A DNA stretch of 64,000 bases from Vitreimonas sp. (GTDB taxonomy: Bacteria; Patescibacteriota; Microgenomatia; UBA1400; PJMF01), in contig DASPLQ010000012.1 in the NCBI GenBank assembly GCA_035627515.1, forward strand, positions 71,269 to 135,268, given 5' to 3'. The notes beneath the pieces were generated by a model. That model was not told the origin of the DNA and did not search any database. It saw only the letters and a list, made by a program, of their open reading frames with translations. This document shows positions 22,050 through 40,350 of this stretch, one piece after another. The first letter of the stretch is position 1, and each line of letters opens with the position of its first letter. Position numbers and translations under genes: made by a program.

Positions 22050-22054
22050 AAGAG

Positions 22055-22612
22055 TTATTTTTTCTCAGTTTTATTGAGTGAGATCGTCACCTGCATCGAG
22101 TATCCACCATCCTGATTCCGGGCTAACTCACTTTTGTTGACTGCCGCATACTGATTTTTAACCTCGTCACTCGAGAGTTTCTCAAACACTTCCTCTAGCG
22201 TAAACACATCTTGAGCTTTCAACCCAAACTGCAACAAACTTTCATCACCTTCAAAACTAATCTCACTAATCAAAACTTGAGGGCCAAACAAGGATGAAAA
22301 ATAATTAATTGCCGTCCGTTTGTCACTGCGTTGTTGAAAAAGTTCTCCTAAAATTTTGATCTTATTGGCAAAAATAACATACGAGCGTTCTACATTCTCT
22401 TGAGAAACTACCTGGCGTTTGAGCTCATTTTGTTTATCTTTGAGTTGTTTGACGCGATAGGTAAGAAAAAGCTGGGAAGAGGTAGCAATAATACTCAGGA
22501 TAGTAATAACACCAAACACCACCATCGCAATTTTAAAAAACCTTCGATCTTGTTGATCGAGTTTACTCAATTCCTTCTGCCGGTTGCGTAGAAAGTTGAT
22601 GGTATACGCCAT
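22055..22612 (-). CDS. pilN: Type IV pilus assembly protein PilN
   Basis: 185 aa with a single TM after a short cytoplasmic N-terminus, then a coiled coil. Sits immediately downstream of pilM. Confidence 0.6.
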   Translation of the reverse strand: MAYTINFLRNRQKELSKLDQQDRRFFKIAMVVFGVITILSIIATSSQLFLTYRVKQLKDKQNELKRQVVSQENVERSYVIFANKIKILGELFQQRSDKRTAINYFSSLFGPQVLISEISFEGDESLLQFGLKAQDVFTLEEVFEKLSSDEVKNQYAAVNKSELARNQDGGYSMQVTISLNKTEKK

Positions 22613-22613
22613 A

Positions 22614-23621
22614 CTAGAGTTCTCTCATTAACAAACCCATGCACACAGAGTAGGCGGGGTGATTAGCGGGGGGAATCTCGCCGCTAGCTTGGCTAAACGG
22701 AGCTGCAATCAAAACTTCCACTCCGAGTTCGGCGGTAATTAACTGCACCATCCCCACCAATTGAGCCGAGCCGCCTGACAGTAATACCCGCTGCACCGAA
22801 TCGGTCGGGTGCTGGTTAATAAAGAAGCGAATCGCTTTTTGCATTTCGCCAATCAGTAACTTAGCTGCTGGCAACATTGCTTCCCGAACTTTGCCTTGGA
22901 ACTGGGCCTCATCCAAGCCATAACTACGTTTGTATTGCTCGGCTTGTTCACCAGTCAGACCAATCGTTTGCTCCAAAGATCTGGTCAATAACTGACCGCC
23001 ATTTAAGTGAGTAAAGACAAAGCTCAACTCACCTTGATGCATCACCGCCATATCCATGGTAGAAGCGCCCAAATGTACTACCAGGGTGGTGGGGTCTTCG
23101 ACCGTAAACTGCAACGAACGGATAACTGAAACGATGTGCGTTTCTAACACCGTCGGCTCTAAACCAATCATGGTAAAAACCGAGACATATTTTTCAATTA
23201 AGGATTTACGAGCACCGACGAGTAAGACGCGCATCGGCACATTTTTGTCGGCTTTTTTAGGCCGGAATAAGACCTGATATTCTAAAGATAATTCTTCGGG
23301 GGGGATAGGAATATGTTGTTCGGCTTGCCAACCAATAGCTGAGGCTAACTCAGCGTCCGACAACCAAGGTAGTGAGATGACTTTAGTTGAGACCATTGTT
23401 TCTGGTAAAGCTAAACGGACATCTTGGCGAGGCAAATTATTATCAGAAATGGTGGTATCAAGAAGCTTGGCTAATTTCTCTAATTGGGCTTCGTCGGCGG
23501 CTATGTTAACACCGAGAGGATTAAAGATTTCCAAGGCGCGGGTGACTTGGACAGCATTACCAGGTTTACCACTAATGGCTTTAATCGTATATGTTCCAAT
23601 ATCGAGAGCAAGGGCAGGCAT
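22614..23621 (-). CDS. pilM: Type IV pilus assembly ATPase-like protein PilM (actin/FtsA fold)
   Basis: MPALALDIGTYTIKAI actin-like phosphate-1 motif, plus LSGGSAQLVGM near the C-terminus. 335 aa. Confidence 0.75.
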   Translation of the reverse strand: MPALALDIGTYTIKAISGKPGNAVQVTRALEIFNPLGVNIAADEAQLEKLAKLLDTTISDNNLPRQDVRLALPETMVSTKVISLPWLSDAELASAIGWQAEQHIPIPPEELSLEYQVLFRPKKADKNVPMRVLLVGARKSLIEKYVSVFTMIGLEPTVLETHIVSVIRSLQFTVEDPTTLVVHLGASTMDMAVMHQGELSFVFTHLNGGQLLTRSLEQTIGLTGEQAEQYKRSYGLDEAQFQGKVREAMLPAAKLLIGEMQKAIRFFINQHPTDSVQRVLLSGGSAQLVGMVQLITAELGVEVLIAAPFSQASGEIPPANHPAYSVCMGLLMREL

Positions 23622-23655
23622 AGAAGTTTAATTTTCAGTTTTTAATTTTATATGA

Positions 23656-24471
23656 CTAATTTTTGACAATATCTGCTCCACTATATAATGCAAAATCCAT
23701 CACTGATGGTGCGGTTGGTAAGGTGCGGTTGACTTCAACAATTCTCGTCTCATTGCCATTATTACTGCGCGCTTCAGAACGGACATTGAAGTACTGGACC
23801 GGCAACTCCCAGTTCACACCGGTAATGCGCACGTGGGTGTCACTGTAAACGGGTTTGACGCGCACAAATAAGTCATCACTGTTAAGAGTGAGCGTGGTAC
23901 TGCGCCGATAACCATCGACGTTGATGCTAGAAGCGGTGGTGAAACCATCACTGCGAGCACAACCTGCTAATGCGAGCGTCCGTGCCTTGGTATCGGTAGC
24001 ATCACCAGAAAAAATCGTGACTACTAAAGACGCTGGTTCCTGAGTACTACAGTTGTCTTCTTTGGACCACTCAATTTTGAGTTGGGGATTGGTAATGGCA
24101 GCGATACCGGTCAAATCTACCATCACATTGAGACCTTCAAAGAGCCGCGTTTCCAAGGTTTTGCGCTTGCTGATCGTGTAGTTAACATCGACGTTATCAA
24201 TGGAGGTGACTTCACCAGAGCTACTATCTTCTTCAAAAGTGAGTTCGGAGGAGAGGGCTTTTTCGATACCGGCTTCGGCAGCATTGAAAACGCGAGCAGA
24301 GTCTGCGCCTTGCTGGGAGAGGGCTAGATCTTGCGTGGTACGGGCAGCCACTGACAAACCAATCGTCAATAAAACCACCATGATCAACAGGATAATGACA
24401 CCAATCTGGCCAGCTTGAGAGGCTTTATGCACATACTCATCATAAAGCTTTACCAAAGCGAAAGCAACCAA
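23656..24471 (-). CDS. PilX N-terminal domain-like membrane-anchored protein, first gene of the pilMNO operon
   Basis: TM segment followed by AARTTQDLALSQQGADSARVFNAAEAGIEKAL, resembling the PilX_N motif (R..E..L..N..D...AF.AAEAAL). Confidence 0.4.
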   Translation of the reverse strand: MVAFALVKLYDEYVHKASQAGQIGVIILLIMVVLLTIGLSVAARTTQDLALSQQGADSARVFNAAEAGIEKALSSELTFEEDSSSGEVTSIDNVDVNYTISKRKTLETRLFEGLNVMVDLTGIAAITNPQLKIEWSKEDNCSTQEPASLVVTIFSGDATDTKARTLALAGCARSDGFTTASSINVDGYRRSTTLTLNSDDLFVRVKPVYSDTHVRITGVNWELPVQYFNVRSEARSNNGNETRIVEVNRTLPTAPSVMDFALYSGADIVKN

Positions 24472-24490: not shown

Positions 24491-25063
24491 CTATGCGGCT
24501 TCGTACTCAGACCAGTTTTTTTCGCGATCGGCTTCGATCAAATTCCGCAAATAGACAGAGCGGGGAATCTTCTTGGTCTTAGCAATAAAATCGAGATAAG
24601 CCACCTGGCGTGGTGAGATGAAAAAGTTGAAACGAGTATCAGCTTGAGAAATGGCAAAATCAATGGCACTCTTGAGTGTTTCTTCTAAATTTTCCAGGCT
24701 ATATTTTTGGACAACCAGCTTCTCTGAATCTAAACCTTCGAGGAAGTGGGGAGCGTGACCTTCGGTGTATAAGACGATTACGGGTTTACCGCGCTCCAGA
24801 GCTACGGCAATTTCATGACCTACTCCTAAGGAAGGGTGAGAAGCCTCGGCAACAACGATGTCACTACCTGAAATCCACTTTAACACTTGTTTATAGAAAC
24901 TCACTTTCTCTTGATCACTCAGACCATATACCTCATCGTGAGAAGGGCGCAAGGTATCTTCAACAACTGTATACTCGAGTTTTTTTAAAGTATTAACGAT
25001 CGCTTCGTACTGTTTAAGATACTTATCACGACCAGAAATAGAACCTACAAAATATGTTTTCAT
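24491..25063 (-). CDS. Nucleoside 2-deoxyribosyltransferase-like (flavodoxin-like fold) domain fused to a C-terminal ribbon-helix-helix
   Basis: N-terminal domain: MKTYFVGSISGRD...SDIVVAEASHPSLGVGHEIAVALERGKPVIVLY, the NDT/Rcl-like pattern ending in E-x-G-x-A-x-x-x-GKPV. C-terminal TRFNFFISPRQVAYLDFIAKTKKIPRSVYLRNLIE matches the RHH beta-alpha-alpha pattern. Confidence 0.45.
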   Translation of the reverse strand: MKTYFVGSISGRDKYLKQYEAIVNTLKKLEYTVVEDTLRPSHDEVYGLSDQEKVSFYKQVLKWISGSDIVVAEASHPSLGVGHEIAVALERGKPVIVLYTEGHAPHFLEGLDSEKLVVQKYSLENLEETLKSAIDFAISQADTRFNFFISPRQVAYLDFIAKTKKIPRSVYLRNLIEADREKNWSEYEAA

Positions 25064-25072
25064 AGGGGTATT

Positions 25073-26227
25073 TTAACGTCCAAGAAGAGATTTGGCTAGT
25101 GATTCAAAAAATTTACCTGTAGAAATCGCTGAAAAGTCTCGTTTGGGTTGCGTTTCATCGATGCGTTTTTCTAAGACAAAGATCTTGCCACCCTTACGGA
25201 ACTCATCAGGATCACCAGGCTTCGCACCAGGTACACGATACCGTTTAGCTAGGGCTGGATAACGCTCCGCTTCGCTTTCAGTTGGTCCAGTATCTTGCTC
25301 AGCCCACATCTTAAATTGGCCACGAACTTCCGTATATTTCGGTAACCACCGGTCGCGTTGATCTTCACGGGCTAAACTATAGGAAATAGCTCGGCTGAGG
25401 AACTTGTACCACGTCTTAGAGTACCGGTAAAAAGCCACCACTCCCAAAGATGCCCCGTCCCAAGTTTCGCGATATACCCCTTCTACTTCTTTGTTGAGTT
25501 GTTTCAGCGCGTAGTATCCATTTCGCTCAGGATGACGAATTAAAATTAACATCTTGCCACCTGGTTTAAGAATTCTAAAAGCCATATCCAAGCTGGCTTG
25601 TAAATCTTCATTATTAACTCCATCGGCGGAGTTCATGTACACTATCAAATCCATACTGTTATTGGCTAAAATTTGGTTGGCCATGCTGCCTTCCACCATT
25701 AACACTCGCTTATCAAATTGAACTTGAGAGGCTGTAACCTCACTATCTTCTGCAGTAGGGAAAGCAGCTCGTTGAGACTCAATAAATTCACCTGAATTTT
25801 CAAGCATTTTTCGACTAATGTCGACAGCTACAATCCCTTTAAATTGATTTAAACGTGGATCATCAGAAATGAGGCGTTCAAATAACGCTTCCCCCGAACC
25901 CATGTCAGCAATCATCGCCCCCTTGGTGCCAATTCGAGCTAAGAGGGTGGATAATAACTCCCACTCAAAGACCTTAACAACATCCATCTGCTTTTTAGTA
26001 TTCGTCTCATTTTTATGTTGGTGATATTCAGGAGCATTTTTATTCCAGTCGCCTTTAATTTCATCTATAGTAGGCGGGTGATTAACTGGCACTGCCCACG
26101 GCTGATTGTCTTTACCCACTGGCTGCGCATCTTCGCGTACTCCCACACCAACTATGGCACGCGCCACAGCATCAAAGACACCTCTATTGCCATTACCACC
26201 GATGCGGAGAACTTCGCGTAAACCCAT
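25073..26227 (-). CDS. Class I SAM-dependent methyltransferase with N- and C-terminal extensions
   Basis: Motif I MIADMGSGEALFERL, acidic post-I IVAVDIS, and motif II/III MDLIVYMNSADGV...ILKPGGKMLIL. 384 aa. Confidence 0.6.
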   Translation of the reverse strand: MGLREVLRIGGNGNRGVFDAVARAIVGVGVREDAQPVGKDNQPWAVPVNHPPTIDEIKGDWNKNAPEYHQHKNETNTKKQMDVVKVFEWELLSTLLARIGTKGAMIADMGSGEALFERLISDDPRLNQFKGIVAVDISRKMLENSGEFIESQRAAFPTAEDSEVTASQVQFDKRVLMVEGSMANQILANNSMDLIVYMNSADGVNNEDLQASLDMAFRILKPGGKMLILIRHPERNGYYALKQLNKEVEGVYRETWDGASLGVVAFYRYSKTWYKFLSRAISYSLAREDQRDRWLPKYTEVRGQFKMWAEQDTGPTESEAERYPALAKRYRVPGAKPGDPDEFRKGGKIFVLEKRIDETQPKRDFSAISTGKFFESLAKSLLGR

Positions 26228-26252
26228 AGTATCCTCTTATCTTAACTGTCTT

Positions 26253-26831
26253 TTACCCTTCGAAGTCAGGATATGACTCCATGTCTTCATCGATCAGTTT
26301 GCGCAAGTAAACAGAACGAGGCACTTTTTGAGTTTTGGAGACCCAATCTAAATAATGGGAGTGATCAGGAGCAACAAAGAAATTGAAACGAGTATCTTGA
26401 GTGTTGTTGATAAACTCAATCACAAATGACATCTCATTTTTCAAGTCTTCTAGCGAACTGTAGCGGATGATCTCAATTTTATCGTTAATTTTCTCTAAGC
26501 TGCGGAAAATGAGGGGCTCTTTACTACCACTGTAGAAAATAATCACCGGCTTAGCCATTTGCATAGCGGTAGCCAATAAATAACCCACACTAGTACTACT
26601 GGAAGAGACTTCAGCAAAAATGGCGTCAGCTTTTTTAATGCCATCCATCACTTTTTTGTGATAGGCGAGAAGGTCCTTATCCTCCATAGTTTGGAGTTGT
26701 TCAGGTGAGTACTCAAAAATGTGATCATTAATTAAGGTGTGACCTTGTTGTTTGGCGGCGTCAGCTAAAGTCTTATAGTTCTCATCAAACTGGGCTCTGT
26801 CGTGAATCGAAGCTAAGAAAAAGATTTTCAT
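26253..26831 (-). CDS. Paralog of 24491-25063: NDT-like domain lacking the conserved Glu, plus C-terminal RHH
   Basis: MKIFFLASIHDR...ADAIFAEVSSSSTSVGYLLATAMQMAKPVIIFY. C-terminus TRFNFFVAPDHSHYLDWVSKTQKVPRSVYLRKLIDED is nearly identical to the paralog's RHH. Confidence 0.45.
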   Translation of the reverse strand: MKIFFLASIHDRAQFDENYKTLADAAKQQGHTLINDHIFEYSPEQLQTMEDKDLLAYHKKVMDGIKKADAIFAEVSSSSTSVGYLLATAMQMAKPVIIFYSGSKEPLIFRSLEKINDKIEIIRYSSLEDLKNEMSFVIEFINNTQDTRFNFFVAPDHSHYLDWVSKTQKVPRSVYLRKLIDEDMESYPDFEG

Positions 26832-27292
26832 ACACCAGATCTTTCGTTAATTACTATATGTTGATATCAATAATATGTATTGTTAATAATTTTTATTAAA
26901 TTTTTATTAAATTTCGTCGACTGTTGAGGACAATTGAGTTTTAATTACTCATAAAGGCATCTAAAAATTGGAGCCTATTATATCATGTAGATTCAGTAGT
27001 TATGTAAAGATTCTGCATGTATACTTTTATATTTGAGTAAGTATATGATGAATCATATGCGTATACAATGTGTAAAAGTAGATCGCACTCGGCTATCAGC
27101 GGAGTAAAACTCGAGGCCAACAGTACACAAGCAATACATATAGGATATAACTCTTGACGGATTTATAATGCAGATATCAGAATTTGCATTTTTAACTACA
27201 GATTCTGTAGAGAGAGGTCACAAGCCTCGATTTTTTAGTAAGTAAAAGAAAAAGCCTATAATAAAAATTATATTAAATAAAGATTAAAAAAT

Positions 27293-29533
27293 ATGAATGA
27301 AACATTTGCACTCCAATACGAAAGAGGGTCAGTTAATCCAGAAAAATTTCTTAAGGAAGCTGAAGTTCTTTTAAAACGGATTAAAGATATTATCTTTCAT
27401 AATAATGATTTATTACCACAAAACAGAGCGATTGAGTTTTCCCAACAAAATGTAGACGTACTATTTGACAGAGTCAGAACATTGGGTACTAGTTATGACC
27501 AGTGGGACGATGCAGTGCAAAGTTTGACTGTGGTTGCTTACGATAACTTAGATAAAGTAACCCCAAATGTGCGAAGTGCCGAAGCCACTCGAACCCGATT
27601 TGAAACTGTTACTAAACAGCTCAGTGATTGTTTAGCTCAATTAACAACTGCGCTGACAGAAGCTAATTATTTTGGATATCAAGTCATGGGTGCCTTACGT
27701 AATCCCACAAACTTCGATAGGTTACCTAAAGTTGCTTCAGTTATTAATCATGATGATATTACCGATGAAGAAAACCGCGCTGTCAAAGAATTTGCTACTA
27801 AACGCTTATTAATTCAATTAGGCAAAGCCACTGCGGGGGTGTTAACCATGGCTTCCATGGCTTTGGGGGCTGACCAAGCTTATGCACAAGTCAAAGAGGG
27901 AGATGTGGCAGCTGCTGTCGATGGAGCGGAGGAATATTACTCACACTTAGTCGAACAAGCCGAAGAATACCTTCGCACCGCTGCTGACTTATTAAAGGGT
28001 CGCAATGAATTAGAGCATATCTATAGACAATTAGAACGTTATGGCTTTGAGTTCCCTGGAGATGAAGAACAGGGCAATGGTTTACTCGATGGAGCAGAGA
28101 AGGAAGAAGAAGGTCCTGAAGTGGGAGGAGCTAAAGAGCTCATGTATAAACCAGAACGAGGAGCTCATATTGATGCGTTCCATGTCGTAGGCATTGGGCC
28201 AAATGCACGATTAGAGCTGTGGGATAGATTAAACAGTAATGATTTATTGGGCACAGTATCGGTAACTGATGCTGAAAATGATATTGTAAGCGCTCGAGAT
28301 CTTACAGTCAGTGCGGTTCGTGAACTGGATGGCACTGCAGTTGTTATGTTTGATCGTGAAGGCTATAAAGTTTTCTCTATCGATGGTCAACTTATATTAA
28401 TTGATGTCAATGATGCTGAAAATTTAACTACTGAAACAGTTTTTGCTGATAAAGAATTAAACACTGTGGTGGAAGATGACACTCCTGAAAGTCCCGCCCA
28501 ACAGCCGCCAGCAGTCGAAGCTTGGTTAACACAAGACATCCAATCTGCTCTCAATACCCTTAAACGTCAACTGAGAACGGAAAACATAACTGTTTACCAA
28601 CGACCTGAAGATCAACTTATTGTTGCATTTGTTAATGGCAGTCAGGTACCAGAGTGGGTATATGATCTTGCTTCTTTAAGCTTCGTGCCTAGAAACACTG
28701 GAGGTGGAGCTGAGTTCGTGCCAACTAGTATTCCAAGTGGAAATCCTGCGCAAGAAGCGGGTGTAATTAGTCCAAACAGCCCAGCAGAAAACTCACCTCA
28801 CTTAAGAGTTAATGATGTTTATTATAATCAACTAATTGATCAAGAAGTTAGAGTTCAAACAGCATATCCAGGATGCTTAGTTTTTGAAGTACCTACAAAT
28901 TTTGGCAAAGAACAAGGTGGACCTCAAGTAAATTCTATTGAATGGTTTGCAGATGAAGCCACAACTAGAGAAGCCTGTGATTTGTTTTGGACTGTTACTT
29001 TTAGGGATCTTATCCTGGGTAAAAAGAAAAACCTAGAAGGCCAATCCTATGCGCAATTATTAGGCGTAAGTGAGAACCCTACTTTTGAGGAGGTTTCAGC
29101 TGCATATCATGCTATGAGAGGTAATCTTCCCTTAGTTCCCTATATGAATACTTATTGGCTTGACCCTAATCAAGCTATTCGATTTATGCCTATTCCATTT
29201 TCTACTGCACAAAGAAAATTTGAAGATCGCACATCCGGTGGGTGGGTAGATAGCTTACAAATAGAACAAGGGGACCTTTACGGCGTTTCAGGAAAGCAAG
29301 TGATTTACCCTAATCAAGATGTAACAATGGGTGTATTTCTTAATCAAACAGATGGACTTAATTGGACTGATGGCTTTATTGTTCAGTTTTATGTCTTACA
29401 TGAAGCAATAGTGAAAGGTCGGAATCCTAACTATAGTGTCGATGCTTTCCCAGAGTCTTTGTATCCACTATACGACATCTTAGGAATTGACATTAACACC
29501 TGGACAGGGACAGGATCAATCACAATCAATTAA
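27293..29533 (+). CDS. Large hypothetical protein (746 aa) with no signal peptide, in an AT-rich island
   Basis: Intact ORF, AT-rich by eye compared with its flanks. No recognisable motifs. Preceded by a 460 bp AT-rich leader containing direct repeats. Confidence 0.5.
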   Translation: MNETFALQYERGSVNPEKFLKEAEVLLKRIKDIIFHNNDLLPQNRAIEFSQQNVDVLFDRVRTLGTSYDQWDDAVQSLTVVAYDNLDKVTPNVRSAEATRTRFETVTKQLSDCLAQLTTALTEANYFGYQVMGALRNPTNFDRLPKVASVINHDDITDEENRAVKEFATKRLLIQLGKATAGVLTMASMALGADQAYAQVKEGDVAAAVDGAEEYYSHLVEQAEEYLRTAADLLKGRNELEHIYRQLERYGFEFPGDEEQGNGLLDGAEKEEEGPEVGGAKELMYKPERGAHIDAFHVVGIGPNARLELWDRLNSNDLLGTVSVTDAENDIVSARDLTVSAVRELDGTAVVMFDREGYKVFSIDGQLILIDVNDAENLTTETVFADKELNTVVEDDTPESPAQQPPAVEAWLTQDIQSALNTLKRQLRTENITVYQRPEDQLIVAFVNGSQVPEWVYDLASLSFVPRNTGGGAEFVPTSIPSGNPAQEAGVISPNSPAENSPHLRVNDVYYNQLIDQEVRVQTAYPGCLVFEVPTNFGKEQGGPQVNSIEWFADEATTREACDLFWTVTFRDLILGKKKNLEGQSYAQLLGVSENPTFEEVSAAYHAMRGNLPLVPYMNTYWLDPNQAIRFMPIPFSTAQRKFEDRTSGGWVDSLQIEQGDLYGVSGKQVIYPNQDVTMGVFLNQTDGLNWTDGFIVQFYVLHEAIVKGRNPNYSVDAFPESLYPLYDILGIDINTWTGTGSITIN

Positions 29534-29599
29534 GCATAGTGACTTCAGTCTTTTTTCGTGATTTAATGAAGTAGTAACTTTAATTGTAAACTTCATATC

Positions 29600-31966
29600 A
29601 TGAAAAAAATCATAGCTACAATTTTTTGTTTTGTAGCTTTTGTATTAAGTTTATTTCTTGTAGCCACAAAAACTTTTGCTATGTGCACAGGCGACTTCTC
29701 TTGTCGTATTTGTACGTATAGTAATTGTCACCGTGCTAATGGGAGCAGTTGTACTAGAGGTTCTGTAGGATGTACTTGTGATGAAAATTGCAATACTCAT
29801 TATTTATCTTCATGCGCTGGAGGTGCTTGTGATAGACCTGGTGGATCAACTAATTGTTCAGGAGAACTCGTAAATACTTGTGGTGAATGCAATCAAAATG
29901 CTTGGAGTCTTTGGGGAAGTTGTGAGCAGGTAGGAAATACATGTGTTAGCAGACGATGGAATAACTGTGGCCACTCTGAATCTCAATCATGTAACCCATC
30001 TGCTTGTGGCATGATTGATCCATGTACAGACACCCGTGATGTAGATGGTGGTTGTAATGGTTGTATGCGAGGTTGTTCACGATTGTCCAATATCGACAAT
30101 AGTTATTGTGGAAGTTGTGAACGAGCCGATACGAGTTGTGATGGCTGGAGTGAGTGGGGTTATAACGGTAATGTGGGAGCCTGTTCGGCATCGTGCGGTG
30201 GGGGTATTCAGACGCGTAATTGTTGGGGAGCTGTAGACTCACGATCTTGTAACACCCATTCTTGTTGTACCACTATTTGTAATGCTCCTTTATGTGGCCA
30301 AGCTAACACTGGTACCTGTGGCGGCTTTTGCCCATCGACCAGTATCGGTCAAGGTTGTTCTCCACAATGTGGTCAACCAGATGTATGTAATGTTGCTTGT
30401 GGCAATAGCGATAACGGAAATCCATCGGCACCAACACTGACTCCCGCCAATGGTGGGACTACGCCGGTAAGTGGTGCGACAGCCAGTATTAGTTGGACCG
30501 CAGTTGGCTTAGCCGACCAATATGAACTTGAGTTGTATCCTGAAAATGGGAGTTGTAGTAGTACGGGTGCGGTATGTACGACAGTGGTGGGCACCAGTTA
30601 TAACTTCACACCTACCGCTGGCGTTAGTCGCTACACTTGGAGAGTCCGTGGTGTAAACACCACCTGTGGTGCTTTCGGTGGTAATGATGCGGGTACTTGG
30701 GCTACTGCTTCTACTTTCACCGTCACTTCTACGATTACCGGCACTTTTTACAGTGACAATAATGATAATGCACAGTTAAGCGGTAGTTTCTGTACGTTAG
30801 GGAGTCTGACCGCGATCAGTCCCGGGACTGGTGCCAGTATTGCCGCTGTTGGCCAAGACGGTGGTACTTATAATGGCAGCATTGTTGGCAGTAACTTTAC
30901 CATTACAGTCCCGTGGTGGAATACCTCAGGCGCTAATAATATTGTGACTTTGACACCAGGGACTAATGCCGGTGTGGCGTATGCCTGTAGCTGTCCCAAT
31001 GGCTGTCAATATAGTGGCGTCGCCGCCCCCCAAGCTGGCGTACCTTACTTTATCTTGCCAGAAAACTTATTGGCTCGCGGCTGGTGGCAAGTAGTAGGCG
31101 GCAGTACCTATGCCGCTGATAGCACTGGCACTGCCCTCTCCTCACAAATTCCTTATGACACTACCTGTAATAGTGGCGCCAACTGTACTCGGGCTCTGAT
31201 TACTAATGATAGCGATGGCACTGCCAACAGTGCCGGAGTCGCCTTGACTGGTGGCGGCACCATCGACACGTCACGTGATACTGGTAATCAATTGACCTAC
31301 ATCTCAGTCCGTGATCCACAGCTGAGTGTCTTGGGAACAGTGACGACGCGCTTCCAAGAAGGTTATGATTACTTCTATCGTCAGCTTAGTTTAGGTTTGA
31401 ATCCTAGTGACGACTTTGCCGCTAGTTATACTGATGCCCACAAACCAAGTTCAGCTCCCAATGACGGCAAAAATGCCTACTTCCGCAATGGTGATTTAAC
31501 TGTTAAATCTCAATGGACTGTCACCGCTGGTGAACAATACGTCATCTTTGTGAACGGCAACTTAACCCTGGGCGATGGCAACAACAATATCGAGCGCCTC
31601 ATTAATATTGAGGAAGGTGGGTTTGTCGCCTTTATCGTCTCCGGAAATATTACCGTAGAACCAGGAGTAGGGAACACCAGCCTGACTGATACGGCTGCGA
31701 ATATTGAAGGTATCTACATGGCAGACGGCACCTTTACAGTCCGCTCACGCGGTGAGTCAGCAGGTGGCGATAATCGTTTTGTCGGCGCAGGATCATTCGT
31801 CGGGTGGAGTGGGGTATCACTAGAAAGAGACTTCTCTGATGGCAGTACCCGCAAACAAGAAAACAATACCAAAGCTGTCGAAATGTTCGTTTACCGCCCA
31901 GATTTGGTTCGCTACGTTCCTGAAGAACTAGCTCGGCCACGGTATGTGTGGCAAGAGACTAATTAA
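29600..31966 (+). CDS. Secreted, extremely Cys-rich protein with a thrombospondin type 1 repeat, an FN3-like segment and a Gly/Thr/Ser-rich beta region
   Basis: Signal peptide MKKIIATIFCFVAFVLSLFLVATKTFA. About 60 Cys in residues 28-270. Canonical TSP1 motif WSEWGYNGNVGACSASCGGGIQTRNC and a degenerate second repeat WSLWGSCEQ.... FN3-like segment PSAPTLTP...ASISWTAV...YTWRVRGV. Confidence 0.6.
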   Translation: MKKIIATIFCFVAFVLSLFLVATKTFAMCTGDFSCRICTYSNCHRANGSSCTRGSVGCTCDENCNTHYLSSCAGGACDRPGGSTNCSGELVNTCGECNQNAWSLWGSCEQVGNTCVSRRWNNCGHSESQSCNPSACGMIDPCTDTRDVDGGCNGCMRGCSRLSNIDNSYCGSCERADTSCDGWSEWGYNGNVGACSASCGGGIQTRNCWGAVDSRSCNTHSCCTTICNAPLCGQANTGTCGGFCPSTSIGQGCSPQCGQPDVCNVACGNSDNGNPSAPTLTPANGGTTPVSGATASISWTAVGLADQYELELYPENGSCSSTGAVCTTVVGTSYNFTPTAGVSRYTWRVRGVNTTCGAFGGNDAGTWATASTFTVTSTITGTFYSDNNDNAQLSGSFCTLGSLTAISPGTGASIAAVGQDGGTYNGSIVGSNFTITVPWWNTSGANNIVTLTPGTNAGVAYACSCPNGCQYSGVAAPQAGVPYFILPENLLARGWWQVVGGSTYAADSTGTALSSQIPYDTTCNSGANCTRALITNDSDGTANSAGVALTGGGTIDTSRDTGNQLTYISVRDPQLSVLGTVTTRFQEGYDYFYRQLSLGLNPSDDFAASYTDAHKPSSAPNDGKNAYFRNGDLTVKSQWTVTAGEQYVIFVNGNLTLGDGNNNIERLINIEEGGFVAFIVSGNITVEPGVGNTSLTDTAANIEGIYMADGTFTVRSRGESAGGDNRFVGAGSFVGWSGVSLERDFSDGSTRKQENNTKAVEMFVYRPDLVRYVPEELARPRYVWQETN

Positions 31967-32009
31967 AAGTGATTTTCCTCTGAAGGTAATTTTTCTTTGC
32001 TCAGTAAGG

Positions 32010-32045
32010 TGTGTGTCATTTTTGTGCACTATTTATGCCAGTGTA
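32010..32045. repeat. Motif B partial copy (right half: GTGCACTATTTATGCCA)
   Basis: Identical to the right half of the 43471-43542 copy. Confidence 0.4.
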
Positions 32046-32091
32046 AAAATGAGGTTCTGGTTAGGGTGCGTCAGTGAAAAGGTCTTTTGCT

Positions 32092-32150
32092 GAGCTCATG
32101 TTTTTTTGTTTGTATGAATATTGGCAAAAATCATACAACTGACACAAAAC
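32092..32150. repeat. Orphan copy of the parD promoter/operator block, containing palindromic element copy 4 at 32110-32138
   Basis: TTGTATGA-ATATTGGCAAAAA-TCATACAA. It includes the parD ATG and two codons, but the frame stops after 12 codons. Confidence 0.55.
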
Positions 32151-32205
32151 TTCCTTTTAAGAGAAAGAGGTTAGAGGCTAACTACCTTCACCTGTTTTTT
32201 CTACA

Positions 32206-32234
32206 TTGTGCGGATATTAACAAAAACCGCACAA
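32206..32234. repeat. Palindromic element family, copy 5: TTGTGCGG-ATATTAACAAAAA-CCGCACAA
   Basis: Perfect 8 bp arms around the conserved 13 nt core. Confidence 0.6.
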
Positions 32235-32473
32235 GCTATAAGAAGTTCATTTTCTGACGTATAAACTCGAAGACAGTTTAACTACTTATAGGAAAAAATG
32301 CCCATATTCTTAAAGGCTTTCACTCCACACACTTTCAAACCACCTTCACTCTTGCCCTCCAAAAACCCTGGTGTCACTTTGTGTCTACTTTAAGCACCTT
32401 TTAGGCACACTTATTGCCACACAAAAAAACTCCTTACGTAACCTTCCAAATTCCTCTACAATCACTTTATAAG

Positions 32474-33031
32474 ATGCCACATCCTGCTACTGCCCAGACC
32501 ACCTTTGAAAAAAACCTTAAAAAATTTACCCCGAGTGGTTTTACCTTGATCGAGCTCTTAATTGTCGTGACGCTGTCGATTATGTTGATGTTGACGGCCT
32601 CGACAGTGTTCCTGACCTTTTTAGCCGGGAACTCACGCAGTACTAATAACCAGCTAGTGAAAAATGAAGGCAAGTACGCCTTGCAACAAATTGAGTTTTT
32701 GCTCCGCAACACCACCGAGTTACTGCCCAATACCCAAAGCCAAACTTGCCAAGCTGGCATGAGTGAAATTAAGTTCAAGTCATTTGATAATGGCATCACT
32801 ACCTTGATGGCCGAAAACAATAAAATTGCCTCAAACTCAGGAGTGTATCTGACCTCACAATCAGTAAATTTAGTCAGTGGTCCAGTTTTTGATTGCGCAC
32901 AAAGCGACGACAAAGTTTCACAGTTTATTACAGTTACCTTCACTTTACGCAAAACCGGCAATGATGAAGCCGACCAACGGGAAATTAGCGAAGAAACGTT
33001 TAGTAGCTCGATTAATGTGCGGACGTATTAG
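32474..33031 (+). CDS. Type IV pilin-like protein (prepilin class III signal)
   Basis: KKFTPSG|FTLIELLIVVTLSIM: prepilin peptidase site G|F with Glu at +5. Start taken at the internal ATG 32474. Confidence 0.6.
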   Translation: MPHPATAQTTFEKNLKKFTPSGFTLIELLIVVTLSIMLMLTASTVFLTFLAGNSRSTNNQLVKNEGKYALQQIEFLLRNTTELLPNTQSQTCQAGMSEIKFKSFDNGITTLMAENNKIASNSGVYLTSQSVNLVSGPVFDCAQSDDKVSQFITVTFTLRKTGNDEADQREISEETFSSSINVRTY

Positions 33032-33043: not shown

Positions 33044-33532
33044 TTACTGCCACTGTTGAAACTCTTGAGCAATCTCTACAGTCCGGGGCCGGTTGCCATC
33101 AAACCACTGCACCTCGATCTCCACACGCACCCGGTCTACCACCGTGCCATTATTAAAAGGTGTCACGATCGCTTCGCGCGTCATTTGCGTCCCCGCCACC
33201 GGAATGCCATCTGCACAAGCTCCGGGCTCTAAATTGACAAACTCATCAGTGCTACTGGGCAAAGTATTTAAACAGTAGGTGTTACTGCCCACCACATTAC
33301 GAAAGGTGTCCCATCCCATCAGTGCTCGCTCACGACGAAAAATTTCTACGGCTTCTTGGGCGTAACTGGTTGCCAAGGCTTTATACTTAGATTCAGCACT
33401 GTTTTTGACCGAGTACGTCAACCCAGCCGCTATGGCAGTCATCACTAAGGCAATCACACCGGCGGCAATCAGGACTTCAATAATAGTTTGACCAGCCGTA
33501 GATTTTAAAGAATGGTTTATAGACATCGGCAC
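33044..33532 (-). CDS. Type IV minor pilin-like protein
   Basis: STAG|QTIIEVLIAAGVIALV: class III signal with Glu at +5. Confidence 0.55.
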   Translation of the reverse strand: MPMSINHSLKSTAGQTIIEVLIAAGVIALVMTAIAAGLTYSVKNSAESKYKALATSYAQEAVEIFRRERALMGWDTFRNVVGSNTYCLNTLPSSTDEFVNLEPGACADGIPVAGTQMTREAIVTPFNNGTVVDRVRVEIEVQWFDGNRPRTVEIAQEFQQWQ

Positions 33533-34317
33533 CTTGTCCAGCTAGCTGCACCCCCAAAGCAGGTGGTAGCTTGATTAGTCATTACTGTTGAGCAATTCCC
33601 TGAACCCACCGCACACGTCCCAATAAAGCGATTGAGCCTGCCATTGGTCGCTGCCGCATCAGTCCCGATACTACTACAACTTGTATAACCCAACTGCTGG
33701 CAATAGGCAGTGCAACTCAGGTTGCTGCCGGCATTATTGACCACGGCAGGTCCTTGAGGAGCTACTGAGGGTGCGGGGCTCGGTGAAAATTGCGGGCTCA
33801 GGGAAGGAGAAGGACTCGACTCTGATGAAGGTTGAGTTTGACTGTCACCCAACACACTGCCTTCGGTGATCTCACCTCCTGAGGTAACGGCAAAACTGTA
33901 ATAATCTTCAGAAGACGTAGAATGTACCTCGATGGTGGTGTTACTCGTGCCACCATGTAAAACTCTAAATGATAAGTCTAGGGGAGTACCTAAGCTCAAG
34001 CGCGGATTGAGTTGATACGTATCACGGATGTGTTCACCGTTATTGCAGATCGCCACCACATGCACTTCCACTGGGGCAGCTTGGTTAGCTTTGACGGCGT
34101 AGGAATTTAAGCGGTCACACGCCGCAGGCTTGTCACCATATTGGGCTTTTTGCTGAGCAGATCTGATGTAACTCTGCAGTTCTTTGGAGCCACCAATTAA
34201 AACTTGCTTGTCATTGAAGGTGGTAAAGGCAGCAATGCCGCCGCCGACCATTAGCAACATCACCGTCACCACCACTAACATCTCAATCAGCGTGAAGCCA
34301 CCCAACTGTTTTTTCAT
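33517..34317 (-). CDS. Type IV pilin-like protein with Ser/Pro-rich linker and Cys-rich C-terminal domain
   Basis: MKKQLGG|FTLIEMLVVVTVM. Linker SSESSPSPSLSPQFSPSPAPSVAPQ. Eleven Cys in the last 70 aa. Confidence 0.6.
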   Translation of the reverse strand: MKKQLGGFTLIEMLVVVTVMLLMVGGGIAAFTTFNDKQVLIGGSKELQSYIRSAQQKAQYGDKPAACDRLNSYAVKANQAAPVEVHVVAICNNGEHIRDTYQLNPRLSLGTPLDLSFRVLHGGTSNTTIEVHSTSSEDYYSFAVTSGGEITEGSVLGDSQTQPSSESSPSPSLSPQFSPSPAPSVAPQGPAVVNNAGSNLSCTAYCQQLGYTSCSSIGTDAAATNGRLNRFIGTCAVGSGNCSTVMTNQATTCFGGAASWTRCRCL

Positions 34318-34321
34318 GGTT

Positions 34322-34738
34322 TTAAGGATTGGTGACACAGTGACTCGAGCTATCAACTTCTAATGTGGCACACAACGAAAACGTATTGTCACTAGAATCA
34401 TAGCTATAGGTATAGGCCGGATAGGGGCTGGGTTTGGGGTCACTGACAGTGTTGGCACTGACATAATCTTGAATCGGAGACATACTGCCCCAGTTGAGTG
34501 AACTAGGATATTCTCCATCAGCCGAGTCAATTTTGTAAAGCACCAGAGCTTGGCGGACAATTTCCAGATCGGCTTTGCGCTTACCATCCCGGCTAGTGAC
34601 ACCGACACGTTGGTAACTGACCAACCCAATTGTAGCTAATACAATCATGATAGTGGCTACCACCAATAACTCAATCATCGAAAAACCCTCATTGGAGCGA
34701 GAGGCAGGGGAGAGAAGTGAACGCTGTTTCATAGTCAT
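34322..34738 (-). CDS. Type IV pilin-like protein
   Basis: SRSNEG|FSMIELLVVATIMIVL. Start taken at an internal ATG to avoid overlap with the upstream gene. Confidence 0.55.
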   Translation of the reverse strand: MTMKQRSLLSPASRSNEGFSMIELLVVATIMIVLATIGLVSYQRVGVTSRDGKRKADLEIVRQALVLYKIDSADGEYPSSLNWGSMSPIQDYVSANTVSDPKPSPYPAYTYSYDSSDNTFSLCATLEVDSSSHCVTNP

Positions 34739-34742
34739 TTTC

Positions 34743-35150
34743 TTACTGTAAATTGCTCGCACAGTAAGCTGAGCCAGTGCCATAAGCACAACTAGTATTG
34801 GTAGAATTTCCAGCTGTCGTATCTTCTAAAGTCGCACAAACACAGTAGGTAGTAGCAGTTGCCGTACAAGTATAGGCAGTTTGAGTTTGGGGATCGACGG
34901 GCATACCCCCAGGGAGATAGGTGCTGGAGGCCATGGTGTTACAGGCCGCGTAGGTCGAGCCATTATTGGCATAATACTGCTCAAAAGCGTTTTGAATTGT
35001 TTTCATATCACCACGCCGGCGGGCGTCGCGGCTTTTTTTCTGAGCCGTGGAAAAAGCAGCGGCTCCCATGGCAATTAAAATACCAATAATTGAGATGACT
35101 ACTAATAACTCCAACAAGGTAAAACCACGCTGAAAAAAGGACTTCTTCAT
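34743..35150 (-). CDS. Type IV pilin (PilA-like, small and Cys-rich)
   Basis: MKKSFFQRG|FTLLELLVVISIIGILIA, followed by ...GDMKTIQNAFEQYY, a typical pilin alpha1-C segment. Six Cys in the C-terminal half. Confidence 0.65.
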   Translation of the reverse strand: MKKSFFQRGFTLLELLVVISIIGILIAMGAAAFSTAQKKSRDARRRGDMKTIQNAFEQYYANNGSTYAACNTMASSTYLPGGMPVDPQTQTAYTCTATATTYCVCATLEDTTAGNSTNTSCAYGTGSAYCASNLQ

Positions 35151-35170
35151 ACTGTTCATTATACGCACCT

Positions 35171-36106
35171 TTACTGAGTGGTGGAAGCGGCCGTCACCAC
35201 CACTTTTACACTTGATAAATGAGTCAGTGGAGACTCAGTGCCCGTCCGATCTGTTACCTTTACCGAAGCCTGAAACTCACACTTTGCTTCAAAACAGCTA
35301 TAGGTATGATTGGCGGTGCCAGTTTTAGTAGTAAAGGTTTCTGAAGTGCCGTCACCATACTCCACAGTCACTTCTTTCAGTTCTTGGCTCAAGGTATCCA
35401 CCACGTAATTGATTTCTAAGCTTTCGCCTGCAGCCACGATTACTTGGCGAGTGGCCGGATCATAAAAGGGCTGAGTGGTAACGGATAAGACTTGTGGCCG
35501 AACTTGGCACTGTTGGTAACACGACCGGGGACAATCTGAAACACCAGTTAATTGATTCCCCTGACCGAGACTGTTGTCTAAGGCGCAGCAGGTAAAACCA
35601 TAGCCACTGCAGCTAGAAACAGGGCTAAAGCCTAACTCACCAGGCTCGTTAGCGCTAATGGGTTGGTAGGTGACCTCGCGGTTTTCCACTACAATTGCCC
35701 GCGAGCGCCCCCAAACCGTCAAACCCACCCCACTCCGGTTCTCACCCCAAATAATGCCAGCAGCGCCAGGAATTTTAGTGACAAACATCGGCAATTTTTT
35801 AGTAGTGACCGTGATCGGGCTCAAGGGAAACTGCGCACACACCACCTCAATGACATACGTATTTGAAGACTCAAAACGTAGCTGAATTGAACCAATAATT
35901 TCTTGATTTAAATCTGAGATGCCTTTTTCTTTACATTGTTGCAGGTAGATACCCGAGTTAACTGAGATTCGTCGCATTTGCGTCACTGACTCGCGCACTG
36001 TGGCCACCCCCCAAATTAAAAAGGCTTCCCGGGCGACAAGAAAACCTACCCCAGCCGCTACAGCCAGAAACAACAATGAGATAAAAATGGTTTGTAAAAC
36101 CCGCAT
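35171..36106 (-). CDS. Membrane-anchored protein with beta-rich Ig/PKD-like C-terminal region, within the pilus operon
   Basis: N-terminal TM (LQTIFISLLFLAVAAGVGFLV). Translationally coupled to pilD via a TAATG overlap. No catalytic motif. Confidence 0.45.
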   Translation of the reverse strand: MRVLQTIFISLLFLAVAAGVGFLVAREAFLIWGVATVRESVTQMRRISVNSGIYLQQCKEKGISDLNQEIIGSIQLRFESSNTYVIEVVCAQFPLSPITVTTKKLPMFVTKIPGAAGIIWGENRSGVGLTVWGRSRAIVVENREVTYQPISANEPGELGFSPVSSCSGYGFTCCALDNSLGQGNQLTGVSDCPRSCYQQCQVRPQVLSVTTQPFYDPATRQVIVAAGESLEINYVVDTLSQELKEVTVEYGDGTSETFTTKTGTANHTYSCFEAKCEFQASVKVTDRTGTESPLTHLSSVKVVVTAASTTQ

Positions 36107-36921
36107 TAGAGTAATCCTACATACCATTGTACTAGGCTGTCACCCCAGACTAAAGTAATAAAAGTGGCTATCACTAAGAATGGTCCAAAAGGTATAACTT
36201 GTCCAAAGCGGCGCCTGCCACCAGCAATTAAACTGACCCCAGCCAGCGCCCCAATCAAAAAAGCTAAAAAGATACCAACCATAATATTTGGCCAGCCCAA
36301 CAATAACGCCATCGGCACTGAAAACTTGACATCACCAAAGCCCATCCCTTTCCCTTTAGTTATCCACCACAAGCCACCAAATAACGCCCCAGCTAAAACT
36401 GCCCCTCCCACGCTCCACAGTAAGTCGGGGAGTTGCATTGCTCCAAACAATACCAATGCTAATCGGTAACAGATAGTCATCAGTAGCAGTAAGCCGACTA
36501 TCACATCCGGAATCAGCATGTACAACAAATCAGCAAAGAAAATCACCAACAATAACACCCCGACTAGTAACCAGAACAAGGGTTGGAGCGTTTGGAGAGG
36601 GTGTTGGGTGAGCTGAAAAAAAATAAACCCTACCCAGTACCACCAGACAAATAAAATCCCGGTCAAACTTTCCACCACAGGATGAATGATGCTGATGGGT
36701 TTATGACAGCGCCGGCAGCGACCGCGCAAAATTAAAAAAGAGAGGAGGGGAATGTTGTCATACCAAGCAATTTGTTTGCCACAATGATCACACTTAGACC
36801 GACCCGTCACCCAGGACTCTTCAGTCATAGTCCGGTAAATCACGACGTTCAAAAAACTACCCAGGGCTGCGCCAGCCCAGAATAAAAACAGTGACACCAG
36901 TCCAAAAACGATCAACATCAT
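36106..36921 (-). CDS. pilD: Prepilin peptidase (A24 family)
   Basis: Zn-binding CDHCGKQIAWYDNIPLLSFLILRGRCRRCH, catalytic FGDVKF, and a polytopic membrane topology. The 5' part of the longer track ORF is the upstream pilin terminator hairpin, so the start is placed at MMLIV (36921). Confidence 0.8.
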   Translation of the reverse strand: MMLIVFGLVSLFLFWAGAALGSFLNVVIYRTMTEESWVTGRSKCDHCGKQIAWYDNIPLLSFLILRGRCRRCHKPISIIHPVVESLTGILFVWWYWVGFIFFQLTQHPLQTLQPLFWLLVGVLLLVIFFADLLYMLIPDVIVGLLLLMTICYRLALVLFGAMQLPDLLWSVGGAVLAGALFGGLWWITKGKGMGFGDVKFSVPMALLLGWPNIMVGIFLAFLIGALAGVSLIAGGRRRFGQVIPFGPFLVIATFITLVWGDSLVQWYVGLL

Positions 36922-36960
36922 ATCAGCGTTCAGTATAGTCAGTCTGGGGAAGTGATGCAA

Positions 36961-36994
36961 GCCAAAACAAAAACCCCCGCGCTCAGCGCGGGGG
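36961..36994 (-). terminator. Rho-independent terminator of the major pilin gene (CCCCCGCGC-TGA-GCGCGGGGG then TTTTTGTTTTG on the minus strand)
   Basis: 9 bp GC stem. The T-run is present only on the minus strand. Lies 20 nt after the pilin stop. Confidence 0.75.
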
Positions 36995-37014
36995 TTCAGA
37001 TTCAATGTAAATCT

Positions 37015-37629: not shown

Positions 37630-37866
37630 AGGCAGTACCTCAGGGTTTATTAGTTATCTACTAGAGTACAACAAAATGAGTAAATAAGTAAATAAGTAAT
37701 TAAAGATGCTGCAAAAGTCAGCCTGGGAGATGTACATTTTGTCATGTATCCAGGGTCACTTTTGAAGAGAACGTTAATAAGTGAGTGGTGGTTAGAATCA
37801 ATCTGAAGAGTTGATAATCCTGAAGCGTCAAAACAGTATCATTACTTTTACCTCCTCATCTCGTTA

Positions 37867-37940
37867 GGTACCTGTCCTCCAGAACACACTTTTTACTGTG
37901 GCATATTTAGTGCACGATCGTGGCACATTTATACTACAGT
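37867..37940. repeat. Motif B copy containing the palindrome TTAGTGCACGATCGTGGCAC, ~240-310 bp upstream of pilA
   Basis: GGTACCTGTCCTCCAGAACAC...CTGTGGCATATTTAGTGCACGATCGTGGCACATTTATACTAC. About 75 bp, ~85% identical to 43471-43542. Confidence 0.6.
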
Positions 37941-39253: not shown

Positions 39254-39264
39254 AGTACTTCAGC

Positions 39265-40329: not shown

Positions 40330-40350
40330 ATGCGGTCTTCCTGACGGTAG

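Follow-up and report, generated by a model that had tools for sequence, protein, structure and literature searches.

Introduction

PilY1/PilC proteins, known from the type IVa pili of Pseudomonas, Neisseria and Myxococcus, carry a type I (Sec) signal rather than a prepilin signal, place a poorly conserved N-terminal adhesion region ahead of a well conserved C-terminal module, are encoded beside minor pilin genes in the pilus cluster and come in several paralogs per genome or lineage that differ in their N-termini (PMC7541494). We describe here a 64,000-nt stretch of DNA (hereafter the window) in which a pair of genes, gene 1 and gene 2, is embedded in a complete type IV pilus (T4P) cluster (identified by Pfam searches of the window's open reading frames, ORFs), and in which gene 2 resembles PilY1/PilC in each of the above respects. 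Sequence comparison places gene 2 in a large uncharacterised family within T4P clusters of Patescibacteria. In the described arrangement of PilY1, the minor-pilin stem carries the C-terminal domain, and the extreme tip is formed by the variable N-terminal domain (PMC7541494).

Host recognition and attachment by ultrasmall Patescibacteria are largely unknown beyond a few cultured Saccharibacteria. The T4P cluster proteins PilX1 and PilX2 of the Saccharibacteria (Nanosynbacter lyticus TM7x) have a large accessory domain, lack a PilD-type signal and are proposed host-binding adhesins (PMC11623550); gene 2 likewise encodes a Patescibacteria T4P cluster protein. PilX1 and PilX2 are pilin-like "lollipops" bearing a β-jelly-roll or a 7-bladed β-propeller (PMC11623550), whereas the gene 2 protein, compared with them by description, has no pilin helix and a different set of domains.

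A third point of reference is the thrombospondin type 1 repeat (TSR), a module of eukaryotic extracellular adhesion proteins (thrombospondin-1, F-spondin, the apicomplexan TRAP/CSP/MIC2, properdin and ADAMTS), whose core, C-x-W-x2-W...CS-x-SCG-x-G-x-Q-x-R...C...C...C, is shared by gene 2. The gene 2 family documents a recurrent use of such repeats in bacterial surface proteins. The form in gene 2 differs from the eukaryotic one in being short (~40 amino acids, aa), bacterial and part of a pilus locus, and the best copy in the window carries a 6-residue insertion and scores below the Pfam gathering thresholds.

A gene pair within a type IV pilus cluster

A preliminary description of the window had proposed two ORFs of 746 and 788 aa, both of which proved real and correctly placed.

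27293-29533, + strand: gene 1, 746 aa, a sequence orphan, with a G+C content at third codon positions (GC3) of 0.27
29600-31966, + strand: gene 2, 788 aa, a Cys-rich secreted-type protein

The NCBI model of gene 2 (VD999_00645, here P0001; P-numbers denote database protein entries and L-numbers, such as L001, related loci) is only 651 aa long and starts at M138, a choice which drops the signal peptide and the first degenerate TSR (29600-30011, codons 1-137). Because the alignment with the orthologous protein P0002 continues upstream of M138, the 788-aa ORF is supported, and amounts to a correction of the public model.

The T4P genes surrounding the pair are arranged as follows.

21231-24471, − strand: pilM side of the cluster, with 272-aa and 185-aa proteins (at the PilO/PilN positions), PilM and a PilX_N-like protein
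22614-23621, − strand: PilM
23656-24471, − strand: PilX_N-like protein
32474-33031, + strand: pilin-like gene, 185 aa from the ATG at 32474, co-directional with gene 2, with a GFTLIELL prepilin motif and matches to Pfam N_methyl and NCBIfam IV_pilin_GFxxxE
33044-42492, − strand: pilin side of the cluster, with four pilins, a 318-aa protein, PilD, another pilin, PilC, PilT and PilB
33044-35168, − strand: the four pilin genes
35171-36127, − strand: 318-aa conserved protein with a weak PKD-domain match
36106-37005, − strand: prepilin peptidase PilD
38051-39253, − strand: PilC

This arrangement recurs. The ortholog P0002 lies on a 287-kb metagenomic contig with the same pilM-to-pilB gene order as the window, and scanning one genome per species gave 80 loci encoding relatives of gene 2, 27 of which have T4P core genes within 10 kb (27 of 71 once those labelled Chloroflexota are left out). 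At least 20 Patescibacteria loci share, on one strand, the order large variable ORF, often a ~190-aa N-terminally anchored (N-anchored) ORF, gene 2 homolog and pilin, with the minor pilins, the 318-aa protein, PilD and PilC on the opposite strand. The pilin gene starts between -22 and +77 bp from the stop of the homolog in ~19 loci, and even in rearranged clusters (L056, L052, L073) the homolog still lies between the minor pilins and pilX-like/pilM. We regard the family as a conserved pilus-cluster component in Microgenomates-type genomes.

The genomes concerned are labelled Patescibacteria (the named groups being Pace-, Woese-, Gottesman- and Shapirobacteria, and Microgenomates), and their pilus core proteins are 35-73% identical to those of the window. 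Comparison with close relatives reveals a gradient of divergence, from 57-73% identity in the pilus core, through 38-53% in the conserved C-terminal module (C-module) of gene 2, to an N-terminal part that barely aligns and a gene 1 that is undetectable.

The source record labels the DNA "Vitreimonas sp.", an alphaproteobacterial genus; its pilus cluster is instead syntenic with loci of Patescibacteria metagenome-assembled genomes, the closest of them 57-73% identical, and the label is probably an error of taxonomic assignment; the size of the source contig, 1.41 Mb, points the same way. The 318-aa protein is kept beside pilD in essentially all related pilus clusters, and is another uncharacterised component of these clusters.

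The small N-anchored protein lies directly upstream of the family member in 18 loci (mostly ~160-240 aa, reaching 317 aa in the marginal match of L043). It also occurs at loci lacking pilus genes and on an Anaerolineales chromosome.

Loci with the small N-anchored protein: L007, L011, L012, L013, L021, L029, L030, L035, L037, L038, L039, L042, L043, L051, L053, L056, L061, L068

The N-terminal part of gene 2: export signal, cysteines and TSRs

The N-terminal part of the gene 2 protein comprises a signal peptide and a cysteine-rich region that accommodates two TSR-like repeats and a pair of smaller motifs.

29600-29680, + strand: Sec-type signal peptide, residues 1-27 (MKK, hydrophobic core, then TFA followed by M)
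29681-30409, + strand: variable Cys-rich region, residues 28-270, 39 Cys, GC3 0.24
29888-30007, + strand: degenerate TSR-like repeat 1, residues 97-136 (AWSLWGSC...SQSCNPSAC), aligning with the first Pfam-positive TSR of P0002
30137-30268, + strand: TSR-like repeat 2, residues 180-223 (C-x2-WSEW, a 6-residue insertion, then CSASCGGGIQTR-x-C...C...C)
30278-30400, + strand: two C-x3-4-CGQ-x3-5-C-x3-C motifs, conserved ahead of the FN3 domain in alignments across the family

The Sec signal peptide that had been noted from the sequence is upheld on inspection by eye (MKK, a 19-residue core of mean Kyte-Doolittle hydropathy 2.9, and TFA before M); homologs have the same layout and, as in gene 2, their first cysteine follows directly after the signal. 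There is no prepilin motif in gene 2 (that is, a class III signal G-F-x3-E with an N-terminal hydrophobic helix), the Sec-type signal standing in its place, nor does the protein have a sortase signal, a C-terminal transmembrane segment or a known wall-binding domain. It contains 49 cysteines rather than the ~60 first estimated, with 39 of these in the N-terminal region (residues ~27-270). This region resists structural assignment: an AlphaFold2 (AF2) model of the full-length protein from a 5-sequence alignment reached a mean predicted local distance difference test score (pLDDT) of 44, falling below 50 over residues 134-272 in the Cys-rich part, and a sequence search of the Protein Data Bank (PDB) with the Cys-rich region returned nothing meaningful. 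No Pfam model matches the paired C-x3-4-CGQ-x3-5-C-x3-C motifs.

Both the TSP1 motif and the second, degenerate copy of the preliminary description are present, as W-S-E-W...CSASCGGGIQTR and residues 97-136, respectively. Repeat 2 reads C-DG-WSEW-(GYNGNVGA)-CSASCGGGIQTR-N-C...C...C, with both the W-x2-W layer and the CS-x-[ST]-CG-x-G-x3-R core, and shares 53-65% identity with most family TSRs (38-65% across all of them); repeat 1 has lost the CG-x-G core. The description had staked the assignment on a match to the TSP_1 hidden Markov model and, taken formally, that check fails: the whole protein matches neither Pfam TSP_1 nor TSP1_ADAMTS at E <= 1, and the repeat excised as 45 aa remains sub-threshold (TSP1_ADAMTS 16.8 bits against a gathering score of 23.8; TSP_1 10.3 bits against 21.6). 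Relatives do pass Pfam TSP_1, excised repeats of the ortholog P0002 scoring 38 bits and those of P0081 54 bits. Moreover, a profile of 19 family repeats (including both window copies) retrieved thrombospondin-1 from the PDB at E = 7e-17, together with CSP, isthmin, F-spondin, CCN3, MIC2, TRAP, properdin, C6 and ADAMTS, that is, nothing but TSR structures, all of them eukaryotic. Because the family profile retrieves only TSR structures and relatives pass Pfam, the repeats qualify as genuine TSRs at the level of the family, and we read the window copies, from their alignment to these, as one good, indel-bearing TSR and one decayed TSR.

The C-terminal module of gene 2

The remaining two-thirds of the protein form a module which, in an AF2 model of residues 270-788 built from a 53-sequence alignment, is predicted with high confidence (pLDDT 92.3, predicted template modelling score 0.79) to consist of an FN3 domain, a second β-sandwich and a β-rich C-terminal domain of ~295 aa.

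30434-30691, + strand: FN3 domain, residues ~279-364, AF2 pLDDT > 90, top Foldseek matches to FN3 tandems
30704-31066, + strand: second β-sandwich, residues ~369-489, with a conserved C-x-CP-x-GC-x-YSG motif
31079-31966, + strand: β-rich C-terminal domain, ~295 aa, residues 494-788, ending ...RPRYVWQETN, plus stop; pLDDT ~90

The FN3-like module had been anticipated, and is borne out by this high-confidence model and by Foldseek. Its sequence signal is faint: a profile of the C-module against the PDB found only FN3 (fibronectin chains), weakly, and Pfam fn3 is sub- or near-threshold in relatives and gives no match for the window sequence. The stretch beyond it, previously taken for a Gly/Thr/Ser/Asn-rich C-terminus, is not of low complexity and belongs to a conserved, confidently folded module (pLDDT 92). 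The β-rich domain has no neighbour among solved structures, Foldseek against the PDB and BFVD giving FN3 matches only and the PDB profile search adding none. Comparison of the nearby PilX_N-like protein with the gene 2 C-domain, as a candidate for a shared domain, was negative.

A connection of this domain to DUF7305 (PF23981), a family itself without known function, is suggested by matches in 6 of 19 relatives at E <= 0.01 (best E = 8e-7). The match covers part of the C-domain (about residues 620-715 in relatives), scoring 16-21 bits where a score is printed, against a gathering score of 27; P0166 carries a precomputed PF23981 hit. The window protein differs from these relatives in that it gives no DUF7305 match. 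The gene 2 C-terminal domain thus appears weakly related to DUF7305, which is not mentioned in the papers turned up by our literature search. Searches of the gene 2 protein against Pfam, NCBIfam, PHROGs and PADLOC gave no match.

A large family with exchangeable N-termini

A word-indexed homology search with gene 2 returned 5 matches, its own entry included. With the 520-aa C-module, by comparison, an exhaustive profile search reached 2,556 representative clusters at a cut-off of E <= 1e-3, and 520 when this was tightened to E <= 1e-30. Among the matches listed, the module is C-terminal and the variable part preceding it ranges from almost nothing to ~1,100 residues. These variable parts are typically cysteine-rich (median 9% Cys, with at least 8% in 73 of 122), and the modules for adhesion or carbohydrate binding recognisable within them in relatives include TSRs, F5/8-type-C (discoidin), NedA-like galactose-binding and Big_2 domains, with Hint found once. 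An obvious Sec-like N-terminus is present in ~72% of the longer members by a crude rule, and none of 198 collected sequences (the gene 2 family and gene 1's own entry, P0006) has a prepilin motif. Family members are called "hypothetical protein" wherever a source gives a name, and the literature on DUF7305 and bacterial TSRs yielded no prior description of the family. Several paralogs occur per genome.

When the last 300 residues are placed in a rough neighbour-joining tree, the window protein falls in a clade made up of the pilus-linked copies, and a separate clade of paralogs lacks pilus context. Copies labelled Chloroflexota are pilus-linked in none of nine cases, yet four (L003-L006) nest beside the window protein, inside the pilus-linked Patescibacteria clade, a placement that could reflect gene transfer between lineages or, for small contigs, mis-binning. 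L004, L005 and L006 lie on one 3.68-Mb Aggregatilineales contig, and the Chloroflexota-labelled genomes hold one to three copies each; L039, also labelled Chloroflexota, groups beside another pilus-linked group.

Possible roles of the gene 2 protein

The family-level TSR profile, the FN3 model and the conserved synteny together support the view of gene 2 as a putative secreted, disulfide-rich, modular adhesin-like protein linked to T4P. To this extent the earlier proposal of a host- or partner-attachment adhesin stands; its second half, horizontal acquisition, does not (see below). Against the described systems, we rate the protein as a probable non-pilin, pilus-associated type of modular adhesin, PilY1/PilC-like by analogy and TSR-bearing by family-level homology.

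The matching layout of PilY1 (PMC7541494) led us to propose a comparable role, to which we give roughly an even chance: gene 2 would encode a Sec-exported, non-pilin T4P accessory protein, a functional analogue of PilY1/PilC without being its homolog. After export and disulfide formation, the conserved 520-aa C-module would associate with the minor-pilin priming complex, its likeliest contact being the pilin encoded just downstream (32474-33031); the protein would then be carried out at the pilus tip, where the variable Cys-rich N-terminal part would project outward as a receptor-binding head for the surface of a partner or host. Proteins of the gene 1 slot would be co-transcribed with the adhesin, gene 1 itself probably serving as co-receptor or anchor. 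Such a role fits the proposal that a large accessory-domain pilus protein lacking a PilD-type signal is the host adhesin of Saccharibacteria (PMC11623550), and fits the MdbA-like and VKOR disulfide machinery which genomes of the Candidate Phyla Radiation (CPR) widely encode (10.1101/335083). Also speaking for it are the position of the gene, between the PilM/PilX_N-like genes and five pilins, PilD, PilC, PilT and PilB, the synteny and T4P linkage of related loci, the adhesion modules in the N-terminal parts of relatives, the gradient of divergence along the locus, the pilus-linked clade around the window protein and the confident C-module model.

The analogy has clear limits. Gene 2 has no Pfam/NCBIfam match and lacks the Pfam Neisseria_PilC β-propeller by which homology to PilY1/PilC is defined; its conserved module is instead FN3, β-sandwich and a β-rich domain weakly related to DUF7305, its N-terminus is a disulfide-rich array rather than vWA, the organisms that host the family have no outer membrane or secretin, and its association with the pilus is putative.

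Several observations weigh against a PilY1-like role. No T4P gene lies within 10 kb in 53 of the 80 loci, including all nine Chloroflexota-labelled copies and the separate paralog clade; the C-module can therefore function, or persist, without pilus genes nearby. The C-domain resembles neither the PilY1 β-propeller nor any solved structure, and the family is also present in Chloroflexota. Within the window itself, the TSR falls below the Pfam thresholds, the Cys-rich part is modelled at pLDDT < 50, the small N-anchored protein was not found (it is also absent from the closest syntenic relatives L001, L009 and L010), and co-transcription of gene 2 with the pilin is uncertain because of the 507-bp gap with inserted repeats that separates them.

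The loci remote from T4P genes, the Chloroflexota copies and distinct paralog clade among them, speak for a pilus-independent adhesin, surface-bound or secreted, for which location in the T4P cluster would signify co-regulation only; its hold on the envelope would come from the C-module or from a partner, either gene 1 or the small N-anchored protein. The pairing of small N-anchored ORF and family member outside T4P loci agrees with this, as does the prepilin motif being found in no family member. We nonetheless consider such an adhesin somewhat unlikely: the immediate, often overlapping downstream pilin gene is kept across deep divergence, rearranged clusters, too, keep the homolog between minor pilins and pilX-like/pilM, and gene 2 offers neither a sortase signal nor a C-terminal transmembrane segment or known wall-binding domain by which to be held.

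Conserved membership of the cluster could also be accounted for by a structural part of the pilus machine (the C-module forming or lining a passage through the wall or S-layer, as a stand-in for secretin or alignment proteins), or by a cargo exported by the pilus system; CPR lack PilQ (10.1101/335083), and PilY1 has itself been described as analogous to a substrate of the type II secretion system (PMC7541494). An N-terminus that is hypervariable and swaps lectin-like and TSR modules is, however, typical of adhesins and not of machine parts. Genomes carry multiple paralogs, some copies occur where the genome or locus has no pilus genes, and neither oligomerisation nor membrane features were detected; together these points make a machine part or cargo improbable.

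Returning to the PilY1-like role, a constant docking module combined with swappable adhesion modules is the architecture expected of a specificity determinant, and a more far-reaching synthesis can be advanced, tentatively and with some doubt. The family would do in Patescibacteria what PilY1 does elsewhere, as a pilus-tip protein that is not homologous to it and has a fold not described before; its exchangeable disulfide-rich head, here made of eukaryote-like TSRs, would set which host the episymbiont grabs; a replaceable, low-GC3 specificity cassette would be made up of gene 1 and the 5' third of gene 2, and the nested Chloroflexota copies would trace gene flow between epibiont and candidate host. 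We judge the family to be of moderate to good relevance to the biology of episymbiotic ultrasmall bacteria, and a concrete candidate for host-range prediction from metagenomes.

Gene 1, base composition and the question of horizontal acquisition

Gene 1 has no match in Pfam, NCBIfam, PHROG, PADLOC or the PDB and, among 5.8 billion proteins, recovers its own entry only. No homolog was detected in 82 related loci by phmmer or jackhmmer (using the whole protein and each half), and its positional counterpart in L001 aligns only at a BLASTP E of 0.16. It is a real coding region: the G+C content (GC) by codon position is 0.56 / 0.38 / 0.27, and the frame is open for 172 codons ahead of the hydrophobic segment, over which the other two frames contain 9 and 26 stops.

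27806-27883, + strand: single hydrophobic segment of gene 1, residues ~172-197 (...AGVLTMASMALGADQAYA followed by Q, so ending AYA before Q)

The initial observation that the protein has no N-terminal signal peptide or recognisable domain is borne out, as to domains by the library and database searches. Membrane anchoring is uncertain because the segment is weakly hydrophobic (1.2-1.3). An alternative start just before the segment was considered and rejected, there being no start codon at that point.

Orphan status, as first described, is thus retained; the accompanying suggestion of an unrelated passenger is not, because a large hypervariable ORF holds the same position in related loci. The ORFs filling this slot measure ~370-1,400 aa, and similarity between them does not extend beyond close relatives. 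Of ~18, 9-12 begin with 120-250 aa ahead of a hydrophobic segment that has an AxA-like or lipobox-like end and leads into a large C-terminal part; in the others the hydrophobic segment is itself N-terminal. By this positional comparison, gene 1 appears to be the local occupant of a conserved slot for large hypervariable, mostly membrane-anchored or secreted proteins.

The segment 27293-31966 had been called AT-rich. As a whole it is not, since its GC of 0.439 against a window mean of 0.447 ranks at the 38th percentile of equal-size windows. The description does hold for gene 1 (GC 0.404, 9th percentile) and, in terms of GC3, up to about codon 270 of gene 2, whose overall GC of 0.475 exceeds the window mean. 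By GC3, gene 1 stands at 0.274, codons 1-269 of gene 2 at 0.242 and its remaining codons at 0.446, compared with 0.37-0.53 across 23 neighbouring genes; in a sliding analysis along gene 2 the value climbs from 0.16-0.18 at the start to 0.47-0.51 in the second half. The real compositional anomaly is therefore the GC3 of gene 1 and the 5' part of gene 2, not overall GC. In L001, L007, L010, L021 and L051, too, GC3 is low in the upstream ORF and across the variable 5' segment of the gene 2 homolog, in contrast to the C-module and the pilus core genes of each. Since it recurs in orthologous variable segments, low GC3 marks a fast-evolving or replaceable cassette and not a one-off import; it fits fast turnover or exchange among relatives together with AT-biased drift, and singular import does not fit.

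These data bear directly on the original interpretation of the locus as a horizontally acquired AT-rich island, carrying a eukaryote-type TSP1 adhesin and an unrelated passenger gene. Its attraction is evident in the low GC3 of gene 1 (0.27) and of the first 270 codons of gene 2 (0.24) against 0.37-0.53 elsewhere, in a gene 1 without homolog anywhere, and in TSRs being mainly eukaryotic, as are all the solved structures matched by the repeat profile. Set against this, overall GC is barely displaced (0.439 against 0.447), the conserved 3' two-thirds of gene 2 is native in composition, the low-GC3 pattern extends to the orthologous variable parts of the five loci named above, and TSRs recur in many family members. 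The pair lies inside a T4P cluster in the same order in at least 20 loci, and this recurrence across Patescibacteria genomes argues against recent acquisition. We found no integrase, transposase, flanking tRNA, phage (PHROG) or defence (PADLOC) match, the only tRNA of the window being at 52869. Nor was there sign of a diversity-generating retroelement, with no direct repeat involving gene 1 or 2 and no reverse transcriptase domain among the ORFs scanned. With T4P synteny conserved and no bordering tRNA, phage or defence matches, horizontal acquisition of the whole locus is not supported; the island is largely refuted for the locus as a whole and, in our estimation, highly improbable. Exchange among relatives, if it occurs, would be limited to the variable cassette of gene 1 and the 5' part of gene 2.

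Spacers, dispersed repeats and neighbouring genes

Each side of the gene pair is bounded by a spacer, and the downstream one contains copies of a palindromic element dispersed through the window.

26832-27292, no strand: upstream spacer, 460 bp, 28% GC, between the divergent nucleoside 2-deoxyribosyltransferase-like/ribbon-helix-helix gene (26253-26831, − strand) and gene 1
26888-26914, within the upstream spacer: array of AATTTTTATTA, 2.5 copies
31967-32473, no strand: downstream spacer, 507 bp, with dispersed repeats at 32090-32138 and 32186-32257
11307-11335, 20998-21026, 32110-32138, 32206-32234, 43239-43267 and 47385-47413, intergenic: palindromic element TTGTRYGN-ATATTNRCAAAAA-NCRYACAA, 29 nt

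The AT-rich, repeat-bearing leader upstream of gene 1 is present as reported, although its AATTTTTATTA array is trivial at 2.5 copies and unremarkable in DNA of 28% GC. A scan of the spacers for promoters and terminators gave nothing above shuffled expectation, and an Rfam search of them no match. The repeat-bearing downstream spacer of ~500 bp is likewise as reported. Its dispersed repeat copies include the palindromic element, which occurs six times in the window, twice (32110-32138 and 32206-32234) between gene 2 and the pilin gene; no copy would be expected in the window by chance. The 13-nt centre of the element is constant, and its arms vary between copies yet remain complementary within each; copies with GC-rich arms form an 8-bp stem and a 13-nt loop (z about -3). 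Because orthologous loci have only -22 to +77 bp at this position, the 507-bp spacer looks like an insertion.

On the pilM side of gene 1, the region 24491-26831 (− strand) encodes two paralogous ~190-aa proteins on either side of an S-adenosylmethionine-dependent methyltransferase, each paralog combining an N-terminal domain that resembles nucleoside 2-deoxyribosyltransferases with a tail weakly similar to ribbon-helix-helix proteins. In L001, L007, L010, L021, L026, L042 and L051, the pilus cluster retains all three genes. Being divergently transcribed from gene 1, the 26253-26831 gene is a possible local regulator.

Housekeeping genes border the T4P cluster (recG, gyrB, gyrA, tRNA synthetases and a class A penicillin-binding protein). 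The GyrA among them (48323-51286, + strand) is 987 aa long and matches the DNA_topoisoIV domain in two separate stretches, which suggests an insertion within that domain.

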